Part shown: positions 15,642 to 49,058 of the stretch, one piece after another
Numbering within the stretch: the first letter of the stretch is position 1
How the letters are laid out: each line of letters opens with the position of its first letter
NCBI GenBank assembly: GCA_002401345.1
Contig: NVSU01000001.1
Span: 68,476 to 132,475 of the forward strand
Direction of reading: 5' to 3'
Source of the DNA: Candidatus Wolfebacteria bacterium
GTDB taxonomy: Bacteria; Patescibacteriota; Minisyncoccia; Phycocordibacterales; NVSU01
DNA length: 64,000 nucleotides
Notes under the pieces: generated by a model
Told to the model about the DNA's origin: nothing
Database searches by the model: none
The model's input: only the letters and a program-made list of their open reading frames with translations
Position numbers and translations under genes: made by a program

Positions 15642-15842
15642 ATATAATACAAACACAAAAAAAGCGCCGCACTGTTAATCACAATTACGACGCTTTTCAT
15701 ATTTTGTTAGTTTAATTGTATCAATTCACAGTTTAATTGAAAGATAGAAATGTGGATAACTTTCAACGTACTTTCTACACGACCCAATTAAACTACTGTG
15801 ATAAAATTAGTAGGCGTCATAATTGTGAGTTACTTCAATATT

Positions 15843-19368: not shown

Positions 19369-21158
19369 TCCGTGAAATGCTTAAAAATAAATGGGGTCCT
19401 ACCCTTTTGGTGTATGTGGCAATCTATCTGATTGTCATTTTTTTAGATGTACGACTTGGTGGCTTTTTGAGCTTTTATTTTAATCCTGTAATTTTTCATT
19501 ATCTTTCACTTATCATTATTATTTCTCTTTTTTATGGTGTCACAAATGAATGGAAAAAAAATACACAGATAGCAAAAAGCCTAAAACATTTCGATGACGT
19601 GGATCAAAAAGAAAACAATCGACTATACGTTATACTATTGCTTATTATTTTTGCCCTGGGAACATTCCTAAGACTCTATCACCTAGGGGAACTTTCTCCT
19701 GCAGGAGATGAATATAGACACCTTCTTGCAATGAAACGTTTTTTAACTGATGGTATATTTGGCTACACTACCTCATCTATCACAACTCTTATTATCACGG
19801 GCGTAAAAAAAATTACCACAAGTGATTCACTATTTTTGCTTCGATTACCGTTTGCGCTTCTCGGATCACTTTCAATTTTACTTTTTTATGCGATCGGGAA
19901 AAAAATAGCAACTAGGCAAGTTGGTTTAATTGCAGCGTATCTTTTCGCATTTCTACCGCTTGCAGTAGGTCTTTCGAACTACATACGTGGGTATGAAATA
20001 GCGCTTTTTGTCTCCCTTGTTGCGATATATTTTCTATTTTCGCCTTATATAAAAAATCTATACTTCAAAATAGTTCTCTTTATTCTTAGTTTAAAGCTTA
20101 TTGCGTACTTAAATTCTGATCAACGTTTTGATGCAATGGTTATGTTCTTTGCTATCTTTGCACTCTTCTATGGAGGTCTCATGTTTATAGACGAGATTAT
20201 AAAAAATAAGCGATGGAATAACATCATCAAAATTACCGCCCCTTTTATTGCATTTGTTGCGGGAATTTCTATCATGCCACTTTTCTTTGAGTTTAGTTTT
20301 TCGAGGACAGTAGAATGGGGGTATCTTTTTTTAATTAATCATAGCTATTCCGATGTAACATGGTATTTTGAGATTATTCCGTTTATTGTGATAATATTTT
20401 TTATTATTAGTGCATTCTTTGCAAAAATTAAAAAGAAAAATGTCATCTATGCACTCTCTTTTACATTGATTTTTATCATCGCCATATTCATGTTTTATTT
20501 TGACGGACCAAAGCGATTTCAAGTACGCTATCTGTATCCCCTCTTTCCGTATTTCATCCTCCTTCTCTCCATTGGTATTTCCTCCGCATATTATATATTC
20601 AAAAGAATATTTAAGGTGGGAATAATAGAATACAGTATTGTCTCTGTCATTGTATTTATTACTATCTTTAGCCCTGTGAAAGCTTTTTATTTCACATTCA
20701 CGGAAACGAACGGAGAACACAGCAAACTAAATCAACTAACCTATTTACCAGACAAAGAACTTATAACATTTGTGAACGCTCACAATATCGATGTATCTAA
20801 AATCATAACCACGACACCGTGGGTTTTTGACTTTTATTATGACCAACCATTTTTAATGACAGGAGAACTTAATCAGTATGTGCACTTTCCCAAAGAATGG
20901 AATTATGAATTTGTGAACAGAACAAAGCTCTATAGCATTAGTGGTTTTCGATCTGAAGAAGAAATCAAAACAATAAATGAAATTATTGATACACGTGATA
21001 TAGAATATCTTATTTTCCATAGTCTGCCACAGCACTCAGATTACAGATATAGCTACGAGTACCCCCTTGAAACTATACGTGACACAGAGTTGGTAACTAT
21101 TATTGGAGAAAATAGTTCATATGGATATTACATATATAAAATCAATAAAGAATCATGA
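19365..21158 (+). CDS. Second GT39/ArnT-like polytopic membrane glycosyltransferase
   Basis: 597 aa. LRLYHLGELSPAGDEYRHLL with many TM helices. An extracytoplasmic C-terminal domain. Confidence 0.6.
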   Translation: MIREMLKNKWGPTLLVYVAIYLIVIFLDVRLGGFLSFYFNPVIFHYLSLIIIISLFYGVTNEWKKNTQIAKSLKHFDDVDQKENNRLYVILLLIIFALGTFLRLYHLGELSPAGDEYRHLLAMKRFLTDGIFGYTTSSITTLIITGVKKITTSDSLFLLRLPFALLGSLSILLFYAIGKKIATRQVGLIAAYLFAFLPLAVGLSNYIRGYEIALFVSLVAIYFLFSPYIKNLYFKIVLFILSLKLIAYLNSDQRFDAMVMFFAIFALFYGGLMFIDEIIKNKRWNNIIKITAPFIAFVAGISIMPLFFEFSFSRTVEWGYLFLINHSYSDVTWYFEIIPFIVIIFFIISAFFAKIKKKNVIYALSFTLIFIIAIFMFYFDGPKRFQVRYLYPLFPYFILLLSIGISSAYYIFKRIFKVGIIEYSIVSVIVFITIFSPVKAFYFTFTETNGEHSKLNQLTYLPDKELITFVNAHNIDVSKIITTTPWVFDFYYDQPFLMTGELNQYVHFPKEWNYEFVNRTKLYSISGFRSEEEIKTINEIIDTRDIEYLIFHSLPQHSDYRYSYEYPLETIRDTELVTIIGENSSYGYYIYKINKES

Positions 21159-22396
21159 ACTTCCTTCGAATAAAAATAAAAGAATATCTGGATAAAAATA
21201 AGTTCATGTCTTCTCTCTTTATTCATGGTATATGGATGACAATACGACAAGTGATTGTGCTAGGAAGTGGTCTTGCGCTCTCTATTGCTTTTGCACGACT
21301 TGCTACACAGGAAGTATTCGGACAGTATCAGCTCATCCTTTCAATACTCTCAGTTGTGTCAATTGTTTCCATACCTGGACTCAATATGTCTATATTAGGA
21401 TCAACGGCCCGTGGATTCGAAGGCAGCTTCACGCGCGCGGTGCGCACAAGCTTTCTCTGGAGTCTCATCGGTATTCCTGTGTTACTTGCTGTTGGTGGAT
21501 ACTATTATATATATGAAAATCCTACAGTAGGACTTGCATTTATGGCACTCTCTTTATTCTTTCCATTTCTCTACGCACCGAATACATGGGATTCATTCCT
21601 TCAGGGGAAAGAGCGTTTCGATGTTGCATCACGCTACTCATCAATTCAGGCACTCATAAATGCAGCCACAATAATAGCAATATTATTTTTATTTAAAGAT
21701 AATCTACTTCTTATTGTAGTGGCATATGCACTGACGCTCGCTTTCTTTAATATAGTCTGGTACAAAAAAAGTCTTCGGTATGTAGAAAATAAAAATGAAG
21801 ACAAGGAAACAATTCCCTATGGATGGTTTGTCACAAAAATACAAATTCTCTCACTGATTGCAGGTAATCTCGACAAGGTACTTATAGGAATATTTATAGG
21901 GCCTGTACAATTGGCGGTGTATGCAATTGGAATAAATTTTTCAAAAAAAATTCTTTATTTCGTAAAAAGCCTTCTCGGTGTTGCAACACCAACCATATCC
22001 AAGAAAAATACTGTGAGCATGAAACTCTACAGTAAGATTTTTATTCTTGCGACTATTTTTGCAGGAGCACTCTTTCTATTTATGCCGGTATTAATCCCAT
22101 TTCTTTTCTCGAACAAGTATGTTGATTCTATTTTGCTCTCACAACTCGTTGTAGCCTTTTTACCATTTTACATACTAAACATACTCTATAAAAACCATTT
22201 TCTCCTCTATTTAAAAAATAAACGTATCCTTTTCTATGAATCCATCATATTTCCTATCACAAAAATTCTTCTCATGATTCCACTCATCTATTTCTTCGGA
22301 ATTATCGGTCTTGCGTTCCTCATTGGATTCCAAAATATTCTTAATATGGCGGTGCTTTATCTTCTACACAAAAAAAACAAACAAGTGGTGAAATAA
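21155..22396 (+). CDS. Polysaccharide/oligosaccharide flippase (Wzx-like, MOP superfamily)
   Basis: 413 aa with about 12 TM helices. It sits in a glycan locus with a 4-nt overlap to the upstream gene. Confidence 0.5.
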   Translation: MNFLRIKIKEYLDKNKFMSSLFIHGIWMTIRQVIVLGSGLALSIAFARLATQEVFGQYQLILSILSVVSIVSIPGLNMSILGSTARGFEGSFTRAVRTSFLWSLIGIPVLLAVGGYYYIYENPTVGLAFMALSLFFPFLYAPNTWDSFLQGKERFDVASRYSSIQALINAATIIAILFLFKDNLLLIVVAYALTLAFFNIVWYKKSLRYVENKNEDKETIPYGWFVTKIQILSLIAGNLDKVLIGIFIGPVQLAVYAIGINFSKKILYFVKSLLGVATPTISKKNTVSMKLYSKIFILATIFAGALFLFMPVLIPFLFSNKYVDSILLSQLVVAFLPFYILNILYKNHFLLYLKNKRILFYESIIFPITKILLMIPLIYFFGIIGLAFLIGFQNILNMAVLYLLHKKNKQVVK

Positions 22397-22398
22397 TG

Positions 22399-22435
22399 AG
22401 CTCATAAGCTGAAAAAGTTTCAGCTTATGAGCTCA
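22399..22435. terminator. Bidirectional terminator, 17-bp perfect palindrome between convergent genes
   Basis: GAGCTCATAAGCTGAAA-aag-TTTCAGCTTATGAGCTC. Confidence 0.7.
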
Positions 22436-23047
22436 TTATTTCCTCACTTTAAGGATTATGTCCATACCGTAGCAAGAAAATGTATTTGAAAGATGTGCTT
22501 CGTAGAATTCTTGAGTACGTACATGAAGGTTTACAATTTTACCAAGAATATATTTTTTGAATACCATAGGAATGAAAAATGTGCCACTAAAATAAAGCCA
22601 TTGAGAGACAACCTCAAAATCTAGATCAGTGTAGAATGATGGCACCTGTCGCGTGAGCTTGTCTTGATTTTTTGAGTAATAATAAAATGTATAATATCCA
22701 AAAAATCGCTTATGAGTCGGATCAGAATAATAATACGGATTTGAAAAATGTGGGACAAATATATATATCATACCTCCGGGCTTCAATACACGGTGCATCT
22801 CTCTCATAAGTAAATCAAAATTATCAACGTGCTCAAAAAAGCTCTTGCTGTGTATTTCATCAACAGAATTATCAGGAGCAAACGATAATCCTTTCTCGAG
22901 GTCTGCAACAATATCAATCCCAGACAGTGGAAGCATATCGACAGTAATACGATCGGTACGAGAGGTAGGCCCGCTTCCCAAATCGAGAATAATCTTTTCA
23001 CCCTTTTCAATCTTATCCTTTATAATGTGATGTATTTGATTAGCCAT
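22436..23047 (-). CDS. Class I SAM-dependent methyltransferase
   Basis: LDLGSGPTS motif I. VLKPGGMIYIFVP. Confidence 0.7.
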   Translation of the reverse strand: MANQIHHIIKDKIEKGEKIILDLGSGPTSRTDRITVDMLPLSGIDIVADLEKGLSFAPDNSVDEIHSKSFFEHVDNFDLLMREMHRVLKPGGMIYIFVPHFSNPYYYSDPTHKRFFGYYTFYYYSKNQDKLTRQVPSFYTDLDFEVVSQWLYFSGTFFIPMVFKKYILGKIVNLHVRTQEFYEAHLSNTFSCYGMDIILKVRK

Positions 23048-23059
23048 AAATTTTATACA

Positions 23060-23091
23060 ACATTCTCACATTCTCAAGAATGTGAGAATGT
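23060..23091. promoter_or_regulatory. Operator-like perfect palindrome ACATTCTCACATTCT-caag-AGAATGTGAGAATGT, about 10 bp upstream of the methyltransferase start
   Basis: 14-bp perfect arms. The same motif recurs at 43348-43403 and, degenerate, at 30428-30465. Confidence 0.5.
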
Positions 23092-23092
23092 C

Positions 23093-23908
23093 TTAAGATT
23101 GTTGTTTATTAATAATATCCTTACATACAGAAATCCATTCACTCTTTTCTTTTCTTCCTTTTTTCCTCAGTAAGTAACCTCCCAAAAGAGGAATTTTGTA
23201 CAAATATTTTCTTTTTGTATGTATATACTTGTTTGCCCCAAGCGTTGACCCCCTACCAAAATGTGATGAGAAAATATGTTCATATCCTTTCAAATAATGC
23301 TCTGCGACACCAATACTATTTCTAAACGGACCATCTTTATATGTGCGCGTATTTCGAGCTCCTAATATAATCCCTTTAAATCCTGCTGCAAGATATTTTT
23401 CTCTCAATTCTGCGCCTGTATCCTCATGTAGCGATATATCACGTGGACGTAAATCAATATTTAAATCATTAAACGTCTTTGTTTCAAATAAAATGGCATA
23501 CATGAGTGGAAAATCTTTTGGCTTGTCTCCATCTGATTCTGTTCCCGCAACTTTTACCTTATCGTCGAATGTACTTATTAATATAGTGTCCCAGTCTTTT
23601 ATAAGCCATGTTGCATCTGCATCAAGTATTGAAAAATACAGAGTATCCACTTGTGTTGCTAAATAATTGAGCGCCGTACCATGCGCCATACTCCCGCGTA
23701 ACCCTGTGCTATTGCGTTCAAGTGACACATTCTCATACTCACTAATAATACGTTGCAATTTCTCATAATCTTTTGACTTAGAATCGTTATCCACAATAAA
23801 AACTTGATAAGGATTACGTGTAAGTTTCTTCAATCCGTACAAAGTATTTTCAATAAACTCAGCAGAATTAAAGTTCACTATTAAAATTGTTATGAGAGGA
23901 TTCTTCAT
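23093..23908 (-). CDS. Glycosyltransferase family 2
   Basis: ILIVNFNSAEFIENTL...VFIVDNDS (GT-A fold, DxD). Confidence 0.75.
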   Translation of the reverse strand: MKNPLITILIVNFNSAEFIENTLYGLKKLTRNPYQVFIVDNDSKSKDYEKLQRIISEYENVSLERNSTGLRGSMAHGTALNYLATQVDTLYFSILDADATWLIKDWDTILISTFDDKVKVAGTESDGDKPKDFPLMYAILFETKTFNDLNIDLRPRDISLHEDTGAELREKYLAAGFKGIILGARNTRTYKDGPFRNSIGVAEHYLKGYEHIFSSHFGRGSTLGANKYIHTKRKYLYKIPLLGGYLLRKKGRKEKSEWISVCKDIINKQQS

Positions 23909-30480: not shown

Positions 30481-30521
30481 CAAAAAAAGCCGCAATTGCA
30501 AAAAAATCACAATTACGACGC
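30481..30521 (-). ncRNA. Conserved leader hairpin+U-tract element (family copy d)
   Basis: On the minus strand: GUCGUAAUUG-ugauuuuuuug-CAAUUGCGGC-UUUUUUU, with two G-U pairs. The same pairs would be C-A mismatches on the + strand. Confidence 0.4.
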
Positions 30522-30691
30522 ATGTACATTCTATCAATTCAAACTCATAAATGCAAAATTTAGTCTAATAACTCATAAAAAATGGTATTTTTAGAAAATC
30601 CTCGCATAGTAAAAAATATTGATCCTGTTATGTAAAATAACCAGAGGATGGGCTCCTGCTTTGTGCACAAATTCACTTTATGTATCATTAC

Positions 30692-35147: not shown

Positions 35148-35266
35148 TAAAAAGCGCCGTAATTGTGACCCCTAAAATTCCTAGAGGTGACGATCTTCAC
35201 ACACTTACTCCACCAACAAATGGGAAGAAATAGTCAAGAAAATCTATCACAATTACGACGCTTTAT
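35148..35266 (-). repeat. MITE-like copy of the leader-element family: 15-bp arms GCGCCGTAATTGTGA / TCACAATTACGACGC flanking about 80 bp
   Basis: The arms are inverted repeats of each other with one difference. That difference is a G-U pair on the minus-strand RNA but a C-A mismatch on the +. Confidence 0.45.
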
Positions 35267-35391
35267 ATAAAATTTTCATTACTATTATACCAAGTAATGT
35301 ATGTGCAACAAACTAATCATATACATGTCACTTATTTTTAGTCTCACAAAAGTAGTGGAATAAAAGACTAAACTATATGTATATGAATATA

Positions 35392-41177: not shown

Positions 41178-41217
41178 AAAAAAAGTCGCAATTGCAAAAT
41201 AATCACAATTACGACGC
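41178..41217 (-). ncRNA. Conserved leader hairpin+U-tract element (family copy f)
   Basis: Minus strand: GUCGUAAUUG-ugauuauuuug-CAAUUGCGAC-UUUUUUU. 10-bp stem with one G-U pair. Confidence 0.4.
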
Positions 41218-41251
41218 ACCCTCACCTTAGCAAGTATCTATTTGATAAGCA

Positions 41252-42170: not shown

Positions 42171-43334
42171 TCATTGAATACATTGAGATTTGTATATACG
42201 CATATAATCACGAGCTGCTCTTTTCCAACTCATCTGCTCAGCTTTTTTTCTACTATTTTTCTTCATTGTATCTAATAGTGTTTTGTCTCTATATAATCTC
42301 TGTAAACTCTCGACAATATCTCTATTCTTTCCTTTTCTTACGATAAAACCATTATTTTCTATCAATTCTTTTGTTCCTCCGACATTAGTTGTCACAATCG
42401 CCAGCCCAGAACTCATCGCTTCTAAAAGTGAGTTGCTCATTCCTTCATTAAGTGACGACAGAACAAATACATCTGCTTGTGTATAGTACTCACTCATCTT
42501 GTCATGTGATATTGCCCCCACAAATCTTACTCTTCTTTCAATACCAGCGCGTCTCACCTCTTCTTCGAGCCTTTCTTTTAAATCACCATCCCCTACAAGC
42601 ACTAATCTGCTTTTCTTATTTTTTTTATTAAAATCAATGAATGCCTGAATTAAATGAGTAATTCCTTTTCTTTTAATGAGTCGAGACGTTGAGAGTATTG
42701 TGAATACACCATGTGTCTGTGTACCCACTTTAAACTCTTGAGTATCAATTCCATTATGAATCACGTCAATGTCTTGCTGAGAGGAAGTGTGCTGTGCGAG
42801 CTCTTTTAATAATTTTGAATTCGCGATCACTGAATTAGAATTTTTCCAAATTTTTCTACTCAACCTCTTGAAAAAAAATGTATCAAGCCAAAAGAATCTT
42901 TTACTATAGAACGGAACATCACTTCCGCGCAGACTTACAATATATGGTAACCCCTCTTCCTGATTCACAGAACTTTTTAATGCGTGATAGGAAAGTTTCA
43001 TCGCAATAAAACCGCATGGGATTCCGAAAAATGCATGAATTAGATCGAATTGTTCGTTTTTTATTAATTTCCTACAAAACCAATAGGCTTTCCAACTGTA
43101 CACAAGTAAATCTTTCAAGCTCTGATAATGTATATTCCCACTTTTATTAACATCCAGGCGATAGATAGTGATGTGTGGCGCAAACATTTCTTTTGCATGT
43201 GCACCAACTGATGATGTTACCAGTGCAACTTCTATATCTTTTCTTTTAGAAAATTCACGCAATAAATAATATGTAGCATTTCCAGCTCCACCACCTAAGG
43301 GGGGAAATTCGTAATTGAGCATTAGTATCTTCAT
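42171..43334 (-). CDS. Glycosyltransferase family 1 (GT4)
   Basis: MKILMLNYEFPPLGGGAGNATYYL. C-terminal SLLEAMSSGLAIVTT. Confidence 0.75.
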   Translation of the reverse strand: MKILMLNYEFPPLGGGAGNATYYLLREFSKRKDIEVALVTSSVGAHAKEMFAPHITIYRLDVNKSGNIHYQSLKDLLVYSWKAYWFCRKLIKNEQFDLIHAFFGIPCGFIAMKLSYHALKSSVNQEEGLPYIVSLRGSDVPFYSKRFFWLDTFFFKRLSRKIWKNSNSVIANSKLLKELAQHTSSQQDIDVIHNGIDTQEFKVGTQTHGVFTILSTSRLIKRKGITHLIQAFIDFNKKNKKSRLVLVGDGDLKERLEEEVRRAGIERRVRFVGAISHDKMSEYYTQADVFVLSSLNEGMSNSLLEAMSSGLAIVTTNVGGTKELIENNGFIVRKGKNRDIVESLQRLYRDKTLLDTMKKNSRKKAEQMSWKRAARDYMRIYKSQCIQ

Positions 43335-43347
43335 AAATATTAATAAT

Positions 43348-43403
43348 CACAACATTCTCATATTCTCAAGAATGTGAGAATGTGAGAATGTTGTGAGAAT
43401 GTT
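43348..43403. promoter_or_regulatory. Operator-like palindrome plus tandem TGAGAATGT half-site repeats, immediately upstream of the GT4 gene start
   Basis: ACATTCTCATATTCT-caag-AATGTGAGAATGTGAGAATGTTGTGAGAATGTT. The same core is at 23060-23091. Confidence 0.5.
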
Positions 43404-43413
43404 TTTTAAAAAC

Positions 43414-43451
43414 AAAAAAAGTCGCAAAGCGAGTTAATCACTTTACGACGC
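43414..43451 (-). ncRNA. Conserved leader hairpin+U-tract element (family copy g) with compensatory substitutions
   Basis: Minus strand: GUCGUAAAG-ugauuaacucg-CUUUGCGAC-UUUUUUU. UAAUUG/CAAUUG are replaced by UAAAG/CUUUG and pairing is preserved. Confidence 0.4.
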
Positions 43452-43599
43452 ATATGTATTCTAGCAACTCAAACCCTGAAATGCAAAACTACGCCAGATT
43501 ACCCCTTAATCATTGACGTCTGTCCCATACCGAGATTGCCTCTGGTACTGGGGTCAATTGTTAAATGATTAAGGAGGAGCAAATAATTGAAAAATAAAA

Positions 43600-43632
43600 A
43601 AACCCGCGTTTTTTACAAAACGCGGGTGTATA
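43600..43632 (-). terminator. Intrinsic terminator (ACCCGCGTTTT-ttac-AAAACGCGGGT)
   Basis: Perfect hairpin. It lies downstream of 43654..44127. Confidence 0.65.
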
Positions 43633-43653
43633 AAAAGTATCTGACACATTTTT

Positions 43654-46193: not shown

Positions 46194-46230
46194 TAAAAAA
46201 CGCCGCCTGTGGTGATCACAATTACGACGC
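46194..46230 (-). ncRNA. Conserved leader hairpin+U-tract element (family copy h), 20 nt upstream of the GT2 start
   Basis: Minus strand: GCGUCGUAAUUGUGAUCACCACAGGCGGCGUUUUUU. Hairpin with G-U pairs plus a U-run. Confidence 0.35.
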
Positions 46231-46372
46231 TTTTTATATGTAGTTAATCTTTATAGTATACTTCTTGATCTAAATAGCAAATGATGACCTGTTAAAAATA
46301 TGTGAATAATCCAAAATAACCAGCTGCAATATGGCTCTTGGTGAAGATAGTGTACTACTATTGTTTTTAAAT

Positions 46373-48807: not shown

Positions 48808-48840
48808 ATTAATCTATAAGAGGCACAGAATAAAAGCTTT

Positions 48841-48883
48841 AATAGAGCACGGGGTGTGATAATTGCGTCAACCCGTGCTCTAT
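48841..48883 (+). ncRNA. 12-bp stem-loop (AATAGAGCACGG ... CCGTGCTCTATT) about 30 nt downstream of the promoter. It is a candidate sRNA or a structured 5' leader of a small ORF
   Basis: Perfect 12-bp stem with a 19-nt loop. A U-rich stretch follows. The candidate 28-codon ORF (48886..48972) starts directly after it. Confidence 0.35.
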
Positions 48884-48885
48884 TA

Positions 48886-48972
48886 ATGCTTTTATTGTTT
48901 ATAGATAATAAAAAAGCGTCAATTTTGTGCTTAATCACAACAATGACGCTAGTAAAAGTATATCACATATAA
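48886..48972 (+). CDS. Candidate 28-aa hydrophobic small peptide MLLLFIDNKKASILCLITTMTLVKVYHI (speculative)
   Basis: ATG immediately 3' of the stem-loop. One predicted TM helix. No clear SD. Confidence 0.2.
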   Translation: MLLLFIDNKKASILCLITTMTLVKVYHI

Positions 48973-48999
48973 AATAAATGTATAGCAATACAACACGCC

Positions 49000-49058
49000 A
49001 TTTTAAATAAATAAAAAACCAGCATAACTGCTGGTTTTTTATTTATTTAAAATGGGCC
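49000..49058. terminator. 27-bp perfect inverted repeat (CCATTTTAAATAAATAAAAAACCAGCA-taac-TGCTGGTTTTTTATTTATTTAAAATGG), bidirectional terminator-like
   Basis: Perfect long palindrome with A/T runs on both sides. It lies downstream of the NUDIX gene on the minus strand. Confidence 0.5.

Follow-up and report, generated by a model that had tools for sequence, protein, structure and literature searches.

Palindromes at a Candidatus Wolfebacteria glycan locus belong to a dispersed family linked to a small ArsR/SmtB-fold winged-helix protein

The DNA analysed here (hereafter, the window) is a stretch of 64,000 nucleotides that forms part of a 122-kb scaffold from a Candidatus Wolfebacteria metagenome-assembled genome (MAG). 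It contains a glycan locus (22436-48511) in which all genes are on the minus strand and encode glycosyltransferases, methyltransferases and sugar-modifying enzymes. Two palindromes of this locus, P1 and P2, are members of a family of short dispersed palindromes (hereafter, element P), and the family is linked to genes for a small winged helix-turn-helix (wHTH) protein, one of which lies on the same scaffold. The features concerned are as follows.

22436-23047, minus strand: methyltransferase gene (Methyltransf_11), directly downstream of P1
23048-23059, minus strand: AT-rich spacer TGTATAAAATTT with a -10-like box, from P1 to the methyltransferase ATG
23060-23091: P1, perfect palindrome ACATTCTCACATTCT-CA-AGAATGTGAGAATGT, family core 23062-23089
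23093-23908, minus strand: GT2 glycosyltransferase gene, stop codon 23093-23095, 1 nt before P1
30428-30465: site 3, weak inverted repeat with arms CACTATTCT/AGAATAGTG, 9-bp stem and 10-nt centre
30489-30519, minus strand: terminator-like leader hairpin adjoining site 3
42171-43334, minus strand: GT4 glycosyltransferase gene, ATG 17 nt after P2
43352-43383: P2, palindrome ACATTCTCATATTCT-CA-AGAATGTGAGAATGT with one mismatch
43375-43402, plus strand: extra direct GAGAATGT units of 8 nt each, right arm of P2
43421-43449, minus strand: terminator-like leader hairpin GTCGTAAAG...CTTTGCGAC then T7, just upstream of P2
L246:404-670, minus strand, about 6 kb left of the window: the wHTH gene of the window genome, PCI21315.1, annotated 'hypothetical protein', MKTSNQLERYFKGAANHSRIDILLLVSKNSGINVEGIADALEKNFKTISQHTRRLVQAGLLNKNYQGRSVIHSISPYGKKFITFMKTF

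Only 1 nt separates P1 from the GT2 stop codon, a further 12 nt lie between its other end and the methyltransferase ATG (23047), and the palindrome therefore fills the 45-nt intercistronic gap. The perfect palindrome that an earlier, sequence-only reading had described at 23060-23091 was borne out, as 15+2+15 bp in the duplex or as a hairpin with a 14-bp stem and a 4-nt loop; the '-caag-' centre given for it counts 'ag' twice. Folded as DNA, the P1 hairpin has a free energy (dG) of -13.5 kcal/mol and a z of -6.9. The recurrence claimed upstream of the GT4 gene is likewise a genuine copy, with the 9-mer TGAGAATGT present three times (plus strand positions 43375, 43383 and 43394), but it is imperfect: a single base differs from P1, which gives a T:G mismatch on the plus strand and a C:A mismatch on the mRNA (minus) strand. 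Chance would give 0.83 occurrences of this 9-mer in the window; there are nine, of which seven belong to the first two sites and two are solitary and inside coding regions (9997 and 23727). No full palindrome was found inside the coding regions of the window. Each palindrome arm is composed of two 8-nt units (ACATTCTC ACATTCT), and the 'tandem half-sites' noted at P2 therefore amount to a single unit duplication and an incomplete further unit. The duplication creates a second pairing register (43348-43395), and comparable unit gains were seen at loci L033 and L081; a lookup of the GT4 product for variation in the P2 repeat number returned no record in other assemblies.

Site 3, which had been taken for a degenerate third copy, is not a family member. 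Its fold is weak (dG -7.1, z -2.9), it shares with the family only the inner ATTCT/AGAAT block, and its centre of 10 nt compares with 2 nt in all 135 copies listed from the genome scan described below, which allowed 0-6 nt. The leader hairpins beside P2 and site 3 do exist, are terminator-like and lie on the minus strand (43449-43421 and 30519-30489). The original palindrome observation is thus sound for the first two sites; the third copy and the specificity for the glycan locus were lost. A separate assembly of this organism (Logan SRR5988120; L249:1-39) has a contig that breaks off at P1, 39 nt from the methyltransferase start on its upstream side. Palindromes of the P1 type probably break short-read assemblies, and the copy numbers of P in MAGs are therefore likely underestimated.

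Element P was profiled across public genomes by two scans. One genome per species (185,579 species) was searched with the pattern ATTCTCAYATTCT-N(0-6)-AGAATRTGAGAAT, giving at least 119 loci, and metagenomes were searched with the generic pattern ATTC-N4-ATTCT-NN-AGAAT-N4-GAAT, giving at least 120 loci. The genome set is biased to the canonical variant; the 240 loci referred to below are both sets, and gene calls at these loci were crude (longest open reading frames (ORFs) of at least 80 aa). The family, ATTC-N4-ATTCT-NN-AGAAT-N4'-GAAT, was detected at a minimum of 240 public loci, mostly in Patescibacteria. Among the named matches listed, most were Patescibacteria MAGs (Zambryski-, Nomura-, Colwell-, Yanofsky-, Vogel-, Taylor-, Sung- and Kaiserbacteria, and Moraniibacteriota), many others were labelled Candidatus Saccharibacteria and a few came from other phyla. 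The window genome is not among the 119 genome loci listed, and those loci share no other DNA with the window. A phage origin was considered and rejected, the generic pattern having a single match in 2.9 million viral contigs.

All 135 copies listed from the genome scan are 13+2+13 or longer. Across the family, the search pattern fixes 18 positions, which are invariant; N4 has the form Y-N-A-Y, and the central dinucleotide is CA/TG, TA, CG or GC in nearly all copies. Their flanks are symmetric, mostly ..AAC on the left (A-rich) and GTT.. on the right, with no GTAG-type head, and the AT-rich sequence of the element persists over a host GC range of 31-69%. Compared with Rfam, the window gave only tRNAs at gathering scores, and a permissive scan of 43250-43650 returned only generic miRNA-hairpin noise far below the cut-offs. 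A literature search for the P sequence and for palindromes of the candidate phyla radiation found nothing on this element. The genes next to P span 142 Pfam families among 118 neighbours, including NUDIX, Obg/YchF GTPases, GNAT, Fic, Mrr, PIF1 and MsrB. P is not glycan-specific, and its earlier description as an element of the glycan locus does not hold.

One solo copy stands in a 69% GC, 5.97-Mb Planctomycetota scaffold (L031:1031-1058), with no wHTH gene within the 8-kb locus. A 368-aa ORF for an Rmt/FmrO-like 16S rRNA methyltransferase (family assigned by eye from sequence motifs) takes its stop and its five final codons (TFSHS) from this copy.

Clustering of the neighbours of P revealed one recurrent family, a winged-helix protein of about 88 aa. 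Its 58 genes are distributed over 55 of the 240 loci, nearly every complete gene is bracketed by P, and 93 of the 351 P copies are no more than 200 nt away from such a gene. A co-occurring HTH gene, which the sequence-only reading had proposed to look for, is thus present, and on the window's scaffold as well. In the resulting P-wHTH-P module, the upstream P is 13-47 nt before the start codon in most cases, and the second P overlaps or abuts the stop. The conserved C-terminus of the protein (..KTF) is encoded by the flank and the first bases of the downstream P (AAA-ACA-TTC), and the stop codon comes from the P centre (TGA/TAA) or from N4 (TAA/TGA). In subfamily 2 (L068, L197, L208, L234, L202, L060 and L187), the palindrome itself (ATT CTC AAA TTC TTG AGA ATA TTG GAA) codes for the nine C-terminal residues, ILKFLRILE, and therefore the C-terminal helix and the presumed binding site share the same DNA. 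The modules have no conserved neighbours.

Family-level matches of the wHTH protein are weak, with E about 1e-8 for Pfam MarR, HTH_20 and HTH_5, and 1.8e-12 for NCBIfam HTH_metalloreg, which is below the family cut-off. Its best solved relatives by sequence are YgaV, HlyU, ArsR and SmtB. An AlphaFold (AF2) model (predicted local distance difference test score, 86.5) has the topology a1-a2-a3-a4-b1-b2-a5 and superposes on CadC, SmtB, YgaV, SqrR, CzrA and HlyU (TMq 0.65-0.79), and the model shows the protein to have the ArsR/SmtB fold. The family comprises at least 1,185 clusters at 90% identity, all of them unnamed, and 186 clusters at 50% identity with E<=1e-10.

The wHTH gene of the window genome, PCI21315.1, lies 29 kb from P1. 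It has an exact copy of the P1 32-mer 16 nt before its ATG and a variant copy over its stop, and a third copy of P is 400 nt further upstream. In all, the window's scaffold carries five P copies in about 80 kb, near-identical over 32 nt, and the 10 kb to the right of the window contains none. The region at L246:1-7400 (0-6.6 kb left of the window) also encodes an MmeI-like type IIL restriction-modification protein (1016 aa) beside the wHTH module, two trypsin-like proteases and a DUF2779 protein, a defence-island-like neighbourhood.

The wHTH genes share a promoter geometry. A -10-like hexamer is found 4-12 nt before the ATG in 24 of 33 genes (modal gap, 6), the upstream P is a median of 7 nt ahead of this box, and the ATG mostly follows the box by 6-9 nt. 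The short distance from box to ATG makes most of the wHTH promoters leaderless, and P covers their -35 region. The clearest boxes are of the extended -10 type, TGGTATAAT, TGATATAAT or TGTATAAT. P1 (P-gt-TGTATAAAATTT-ATG) and P2 (P-gt-TGTGATTATTAATATTT-ATG) have the layout and distances of the wHTH promoters (for example P-gtTGTATAAT), and the distance from core end to ATG, 14 nt at P1 and 19 nt at P2, is within the range of the wHTH genes. On the minus strand at P1, a promoter-like match, TTGAGA (the P1 centre)-16 nt-TAAAAT, agrees with the consensus at 10/12 positions; the promoters at P1 and P2 are consensus matches only. The P centre TTGAGA was also considered as a constant -35 and rejected, the spacing to the -10 varying over 14-24 nt. 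The sites bound by ArsR/SmtB proteins are 12-2-12 inverted repeats overlapping the -35 of repressed genes, which often include the regulator's own (PMC8790569), and the 13-2-13 layout of P together with its position just upstream of a leaderless -10 fits such operators.

P is gained and lost among close relatives. At the GT2-methyltransferase junction of the syntenic relative L250 (methyltransferase 78% identical) the genes abut (TAG-t-ATG) without P, and in the relative L251 (methyltransferase 63% identical) they overlap, again without P. A block of about 50 nt, consisting of P1 and its AT-rich right flank, has no counterpart in these two nearest relatives of the methyltransferase-GT2-methyltransferase segment; conservation at orthologous promoters, raised in the sequence-only reading, is therefore not what we observed at P1. 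Elsewhere, the stop codon of a long ORF falls within P in 66 of 353 elements, and some copies are in frame within housekeeping and other genes, with the same loop occupied in different organisms; examples are tsaD (L046, L104 and L174), the UVR domain of uvrC (L088 and L161), dus (L115 and L218) and a reverse transcriptase gene (L139 and L205). P is 28-44 bp long and, where in frame, adds 10-12 residues. Six of the 120 closest TsaD homologues have the P-coded peptide or a close variant; alleles with the peptide show 98% and 86% identity, and those without it 92% and 91%. A clean insertion junction was sought at tsaD and rejected: the alleles with and without P differ by a replaced segment, with no target-site duplication. 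At L152:8448-10410, four P copies stand between same-strand genes (Fic, NYN-like, small membrane protein, response-regulator receiver and membrane protein), and the ATG of the last gene is formed by the final AT of the palindrome core and the flanking G. Judged by sequence, P can supply both stop and start codons.

The two arms of P covary. In the unbiased set, 51% of copies have an N4' exactly complementary to N4, compared with 13% for independent arms, a level reached in 0 of 10,000 shuffles; double-sided changes over the whole stem number 361 (189+-11 in shuffles), and the covariation score is 0.291 (0.075-0.138 in slid controls). The flanks covary within each site, and the central dinucleotide is self-complementary or one transition away from it. 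We considered whether N4 is read by the recognition helices of paralogous factors, but identical helices go with the CGAC, CAAC and CAAT types, and paralogous specificities therefore do not explain the covariation. A strand test found G:U only somewhat more often than A:C in the sense orientation (27 vs 15), and A:C mismatches are not avoided (4/12 at the Y/R position). At the wHTH genes the -10 box is downstream of the upstream P, so that copy is outside the gene's transcript. P also lacks the anatomy of an intrinsic terminator, a G+C-rich stem and then a T-run on the transcribed strand: no T-run terminator was called at P1, the terminator-like site at P2 is on the plus strand only, antisense to the genes, the T frequency at +3 to +6 is only 37-65% family-wide, and the conserved core has 8 G:C pairs per 28 nt. 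Given this evidence against a purely RNA-level element, the covariation points to pairing of the DNA itself, by hairpin or cruciform extrusion or by arm-to-arm correction, or to copy-and-paste inheritance of whole palindromes. HlyU, a protein of the ArsR family, acts at a cruciform-forming inverted repeat (PMC10325908). The contrast that the sequence-only reading drew between this DNA-type element and the RNA-type elements nearby is too simple, since the variable arm positions covary as in a pairing structure.

We consider the chances about even that P1 and P2 are dispersed, gained-and-lost sites of a dedicated wHTH protein, which at these positions probably represses or insulates the genes downstream. 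The home of P would be the P-wHTH-P module, in which the copy ahead of the mostly leaderless promoter most likely serves autorepression. Outside the module, copies would come and go at the boundaries of genes and, less often, in frame inside them. In the window, a block of about 50 nt, P together with an AT-rich -10-like box, would have been inserted between the GT2 and methyltransferase genes that abut in relatives, and a second copy lies 17 nt ahead of the GT4 gene. A wHTH dimer bound there would most probably act as a repressor or insulator on the methyltransferase gene and on the GT4 sub-operon, and the predicted tendency of P to extrude as a hairpin or cruciform would help the dimer to act. 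Both the binding and its effect are proposed here from sequence and from a modelled fold, as is any mode by which the copies spread.

Several observations weigh against this interpretation. P is placed more often near stops than near starts (at <=40 nt, 52 of 111 stop-facing flanks vs 29 of 100 start-facing flanks), and stop/stop contexts outnumber start/start contexts 15 to 1, the opposite of what promoter-operators would lead one to expect. Family-wide, about 12% (32/258) of the copies not adjacent to a wHTH gene are inside genes, some of them in frame, and the sequence-only reading had named a similar frequency within coding regions as a point against an operator. Copies away from wHTH genes have no -10/-35 at a fixed distance, and no coherent regulon or conserved synteny was found around P or around the wHTH gene. 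A homodimer reading two half-sites would, taken alone, leave the covariation of N4 and of the flanks unexplained. The wHTH alignment shows no a3N or a5 metal-site residues, and the protein has no recognisable sensor site that would point to a signal. A promoter-like sequence, TTTGCA-18-TAGAAT, precedes the two leader hairpins (minus strand, 43487-43458 and 30557-30528), and with a promoter and a leader terminator upstream of it, P2 may sit in a 5' untranslated region and not at a promoter.

Many of these points would suit a purely selfish mobile palindrome, comparable to REP or RPE sequences (see below), with the wHTH protein as its maintenance or mobilisation factor and with any effect on the glycan genes incidental; we regard this as possible but unlikely. 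It would account for near-identical 32-nt copies within one genome, the covariation of arms and flanks, the preference for 3' ends and the avoidance of divergent regions. The in-frame copies in tsaD, uvrC, dus and the reverse-transcriptase gene, the presence or absence of P among close relatives, the wHTH modules without synteny and the solo copy in the Planctomycetota scaffold also speak for it. Yet the flanked protein has a plain ArsR fold with no nuclease or transposase motif, neither a target-site duplication nor a clean junction was found (the tsaD difference being a segment replacement), and the upstream P is regularly promoter-proximal at wHTH genes. Moreover, the 18 core positions are invariant over deep lineages and host GC contents, which needs continuing selection, most simply protein recognition. 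A related idea, which we hold only tentatively and think rather unlikely, is that P-wHTH-P is a new kind of replicator in Patescibacteria, a 'selfish operator' whose sole gene encodes a non-catalytic ArsR-like DNA-binding protein. If so, a site of 30-40 bp would spread within genomes and across phyla, sometimes with a portable -10 box, and each insertion would put the next gene under wHTH control, rewiring genomes that are poor in regulators.

The classical alternative, an in-place evolved promoter operator for a dimeric transcription factor that controls the glycan locus, is largely refuted and has in our view only a slim chance of being correct. The dyad symmetry with its 2-nt centre, the ArsR-like gene on the same scaffold and the position of P1 and P2 at 12-17 nt before start codons are what it would predict, and of the dimeric operator first proposed for these sites the 13-2-13 geometry and a wHTH partner remain, the binding itself being predicted. 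The absence of P1 from the orthologous junction in both syntenic relatives, the diversity of Pfam families adjoining P and the copies inside genes argue against it, as do the covarying arms and an identity over 32 nt between distant sites that is atypical of regulon operators. Nor were three promoters of the glycan locus established, and site 3 is no copy. An RNA-level hairpin, acting as a terminator, as an RNA-processing or stability signal or as a block to translation initiation between cistrons, seems to us similarly improbable. Strong folds, positions 1-35 nt past many stop codons, copies between convergent genes, a flank consensus AAAAC...GTTTT, the covariation and the small G:U excess are all compatible with it, but it must contend with upstream copies at wHTH genes that are not transcribed with the gene, with the C:A mismatch of P2 on the mRNA strand, with the frequency of A:C mismatches, with a centre that is self-complementary or one transition from being so, which a loop does not need, and with the lack of both a called terminator at P1 and an Rfam match; the link to a protein of DNA-binding fold would be left unexplained. 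Finally, a site-specific recombination or cassette-boundary site, like integron attC or a serine-recombinase crossover with a 2-bp centre, is barely plausible. Hybrid copies with two arms of different types, the invariant 2-nt centre, AAC...GTT-like flanks, gene-P-gene-P arrays (L028 and L152) and cassette-like neighbours (GNAT, NUDIX, Fic and Mrr) recall such sites. No recombinase family is enriched among the 180 neighbouring genes, however, the flanks covary within each site, which a G/TT crossover would break, and P has no extrahelical bases, is at about 36 nt far below attC length and occurs in frame in essential genes.

The window contains further repeats. A second family lies on the minus strand at 15658-15709, 30482-30522, 35226-35277, 41178-41218, 43414-43450 and 46195-46246, with a conserved 5' arm, GCGTCGTAA(T/A)TGTGAT, a T-run after the stem and a variable 3' arm that is complementary via G:U pairs existing only on the minus-strand RNA; in the copy at 35226-35277 the stem closes over an insert of about 80 nt. 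From its sequence, this family looks like a conserved leader or attenuator hairpin at sub-operon starts. At 22383-22449, a 32-nt inverted repeat (94% complementary, 3-nt centre) extends across the ends of two convergent genes, a Polysacc_synt flippase (21155-22396, plus strand) and the methyltransferase (22436-23047, minus strand), and looks like a bidirectional terminator overlapping both stop codons. The gap between the DUF5667 and NUDIX genes holds a perfect 27-nt inverted repeat (CCATTTTAAATAAATAAAAAACCAGCA/complement) at 48998-49055 and a second one of 28 nt (93%) at 48829-48896. An 85-nt direct repeat, 78% identical and ending ..AAAAAGCCTCTTAT, occurs at 2036-2120 and 2693-2777, 657 nt apart.

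Patescibacteria have tiny genomes with few known regulators, and their gene control is almost unexplored. The wHTH protein and its presumed site, a palindrome of 28-36 bp, form a protein-site pair that is widespread in this uncultured superphylum, and if the protein binds P, a directly testable regulator-site pair would be at hand. P could also be a case in which regulatory sites spread as mobile DNA and reach even essential genes. For the glycan locus, the picture is of two sub-operons with a lineage-specific insertion of P, not of an ancestral control circuit of the locus.

The P-wHTH system is apparently undescribed, and several kinds of dispersed or protein-bound repeat invite comparison. 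REP/REPIN-RAYT systems also have palindromes of 30-40 nt that lie mostly just after genes and show compensatory stem changes, with one protein gene flanked on both sides by the dispersed palindrome. The gene flanked by P, however, encodes an 88-aa ArsR-like wHTH protein and not a Y1 HUH transposase, P has no GTAG head, and no transposase family is enriched among its neighbours. REPs reach hundreds of copies per genome and stay within one species or genus; P is sparse (the five copies of one scaffold), and the same sequence recurs over many candidate Patescibacteria lineages. Rickettsia palindromic elements (RPEs) resemble P in being in-frame palindromes in tolerated loops of conserved protein genes and in being patchy among relatives. 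They are about 100-150 bp long, compared with the 28-44 bp of P and its 10-12 added residues, and to our knowledge they have no dedicated binding protein. Integron attC sites share with P the position just after or over stop codons in same-orientation single-gene arrays, the ability to form hairpins and an imperfect AAC/GTT outer motif. At about 57-141 bp they are longer than P (about 36 nt), which is also too perfect and has no extrahelical bases; the flanks of P are complementary within a site, and no integrase was found among the 180 genes neighbouring it.

The ArsR/SmtB repressors (SmtB, CzrA, CadC and AzuR) offer another comparison. Shared features are the small wHTH protein of the same topology, operators with inverted arms of about 12-15 bp around a 2-bp centre (15+2+15 at P1), at the wHTH genes, a site over the -35 region ahead of the regulator's own gene (PMC8790569), and a protein of the cognate fold encoded beside a copy of the site, as in the 55 loci and on the window's scaffold. 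P differs from these operators in a sequence unrelated to the TGAA..TTCA-type consensus, in its perfection and far stronger conservation, in the second copy over the regulator's stop, and in the dispersal of copies, gained and lost, to gene 3' ends and interiors; the protein differs in lacking a metal or thiol sensor site and a fixed target operon. In the HlyU/exsBA system of Vibrio parahaemolyticus, an ArsR-family wHTH protein acts on an inverted repeat, as is proposed for P, and HlyU is among both the sequence and the fold matches of the wHTH protein. That system is confined to one locus, where the AT-rich spacer measures 10 nt or more; P has a 2-nt centre, many near-identical dispersed copies and a cruciform that is predicted. 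At exsBA, cruciform extrusion of the inverted repeat matters for transcription (PMC10325908), and action of the HlyU type would reconcile the binding of a protein with the pairing-type covariation of P.

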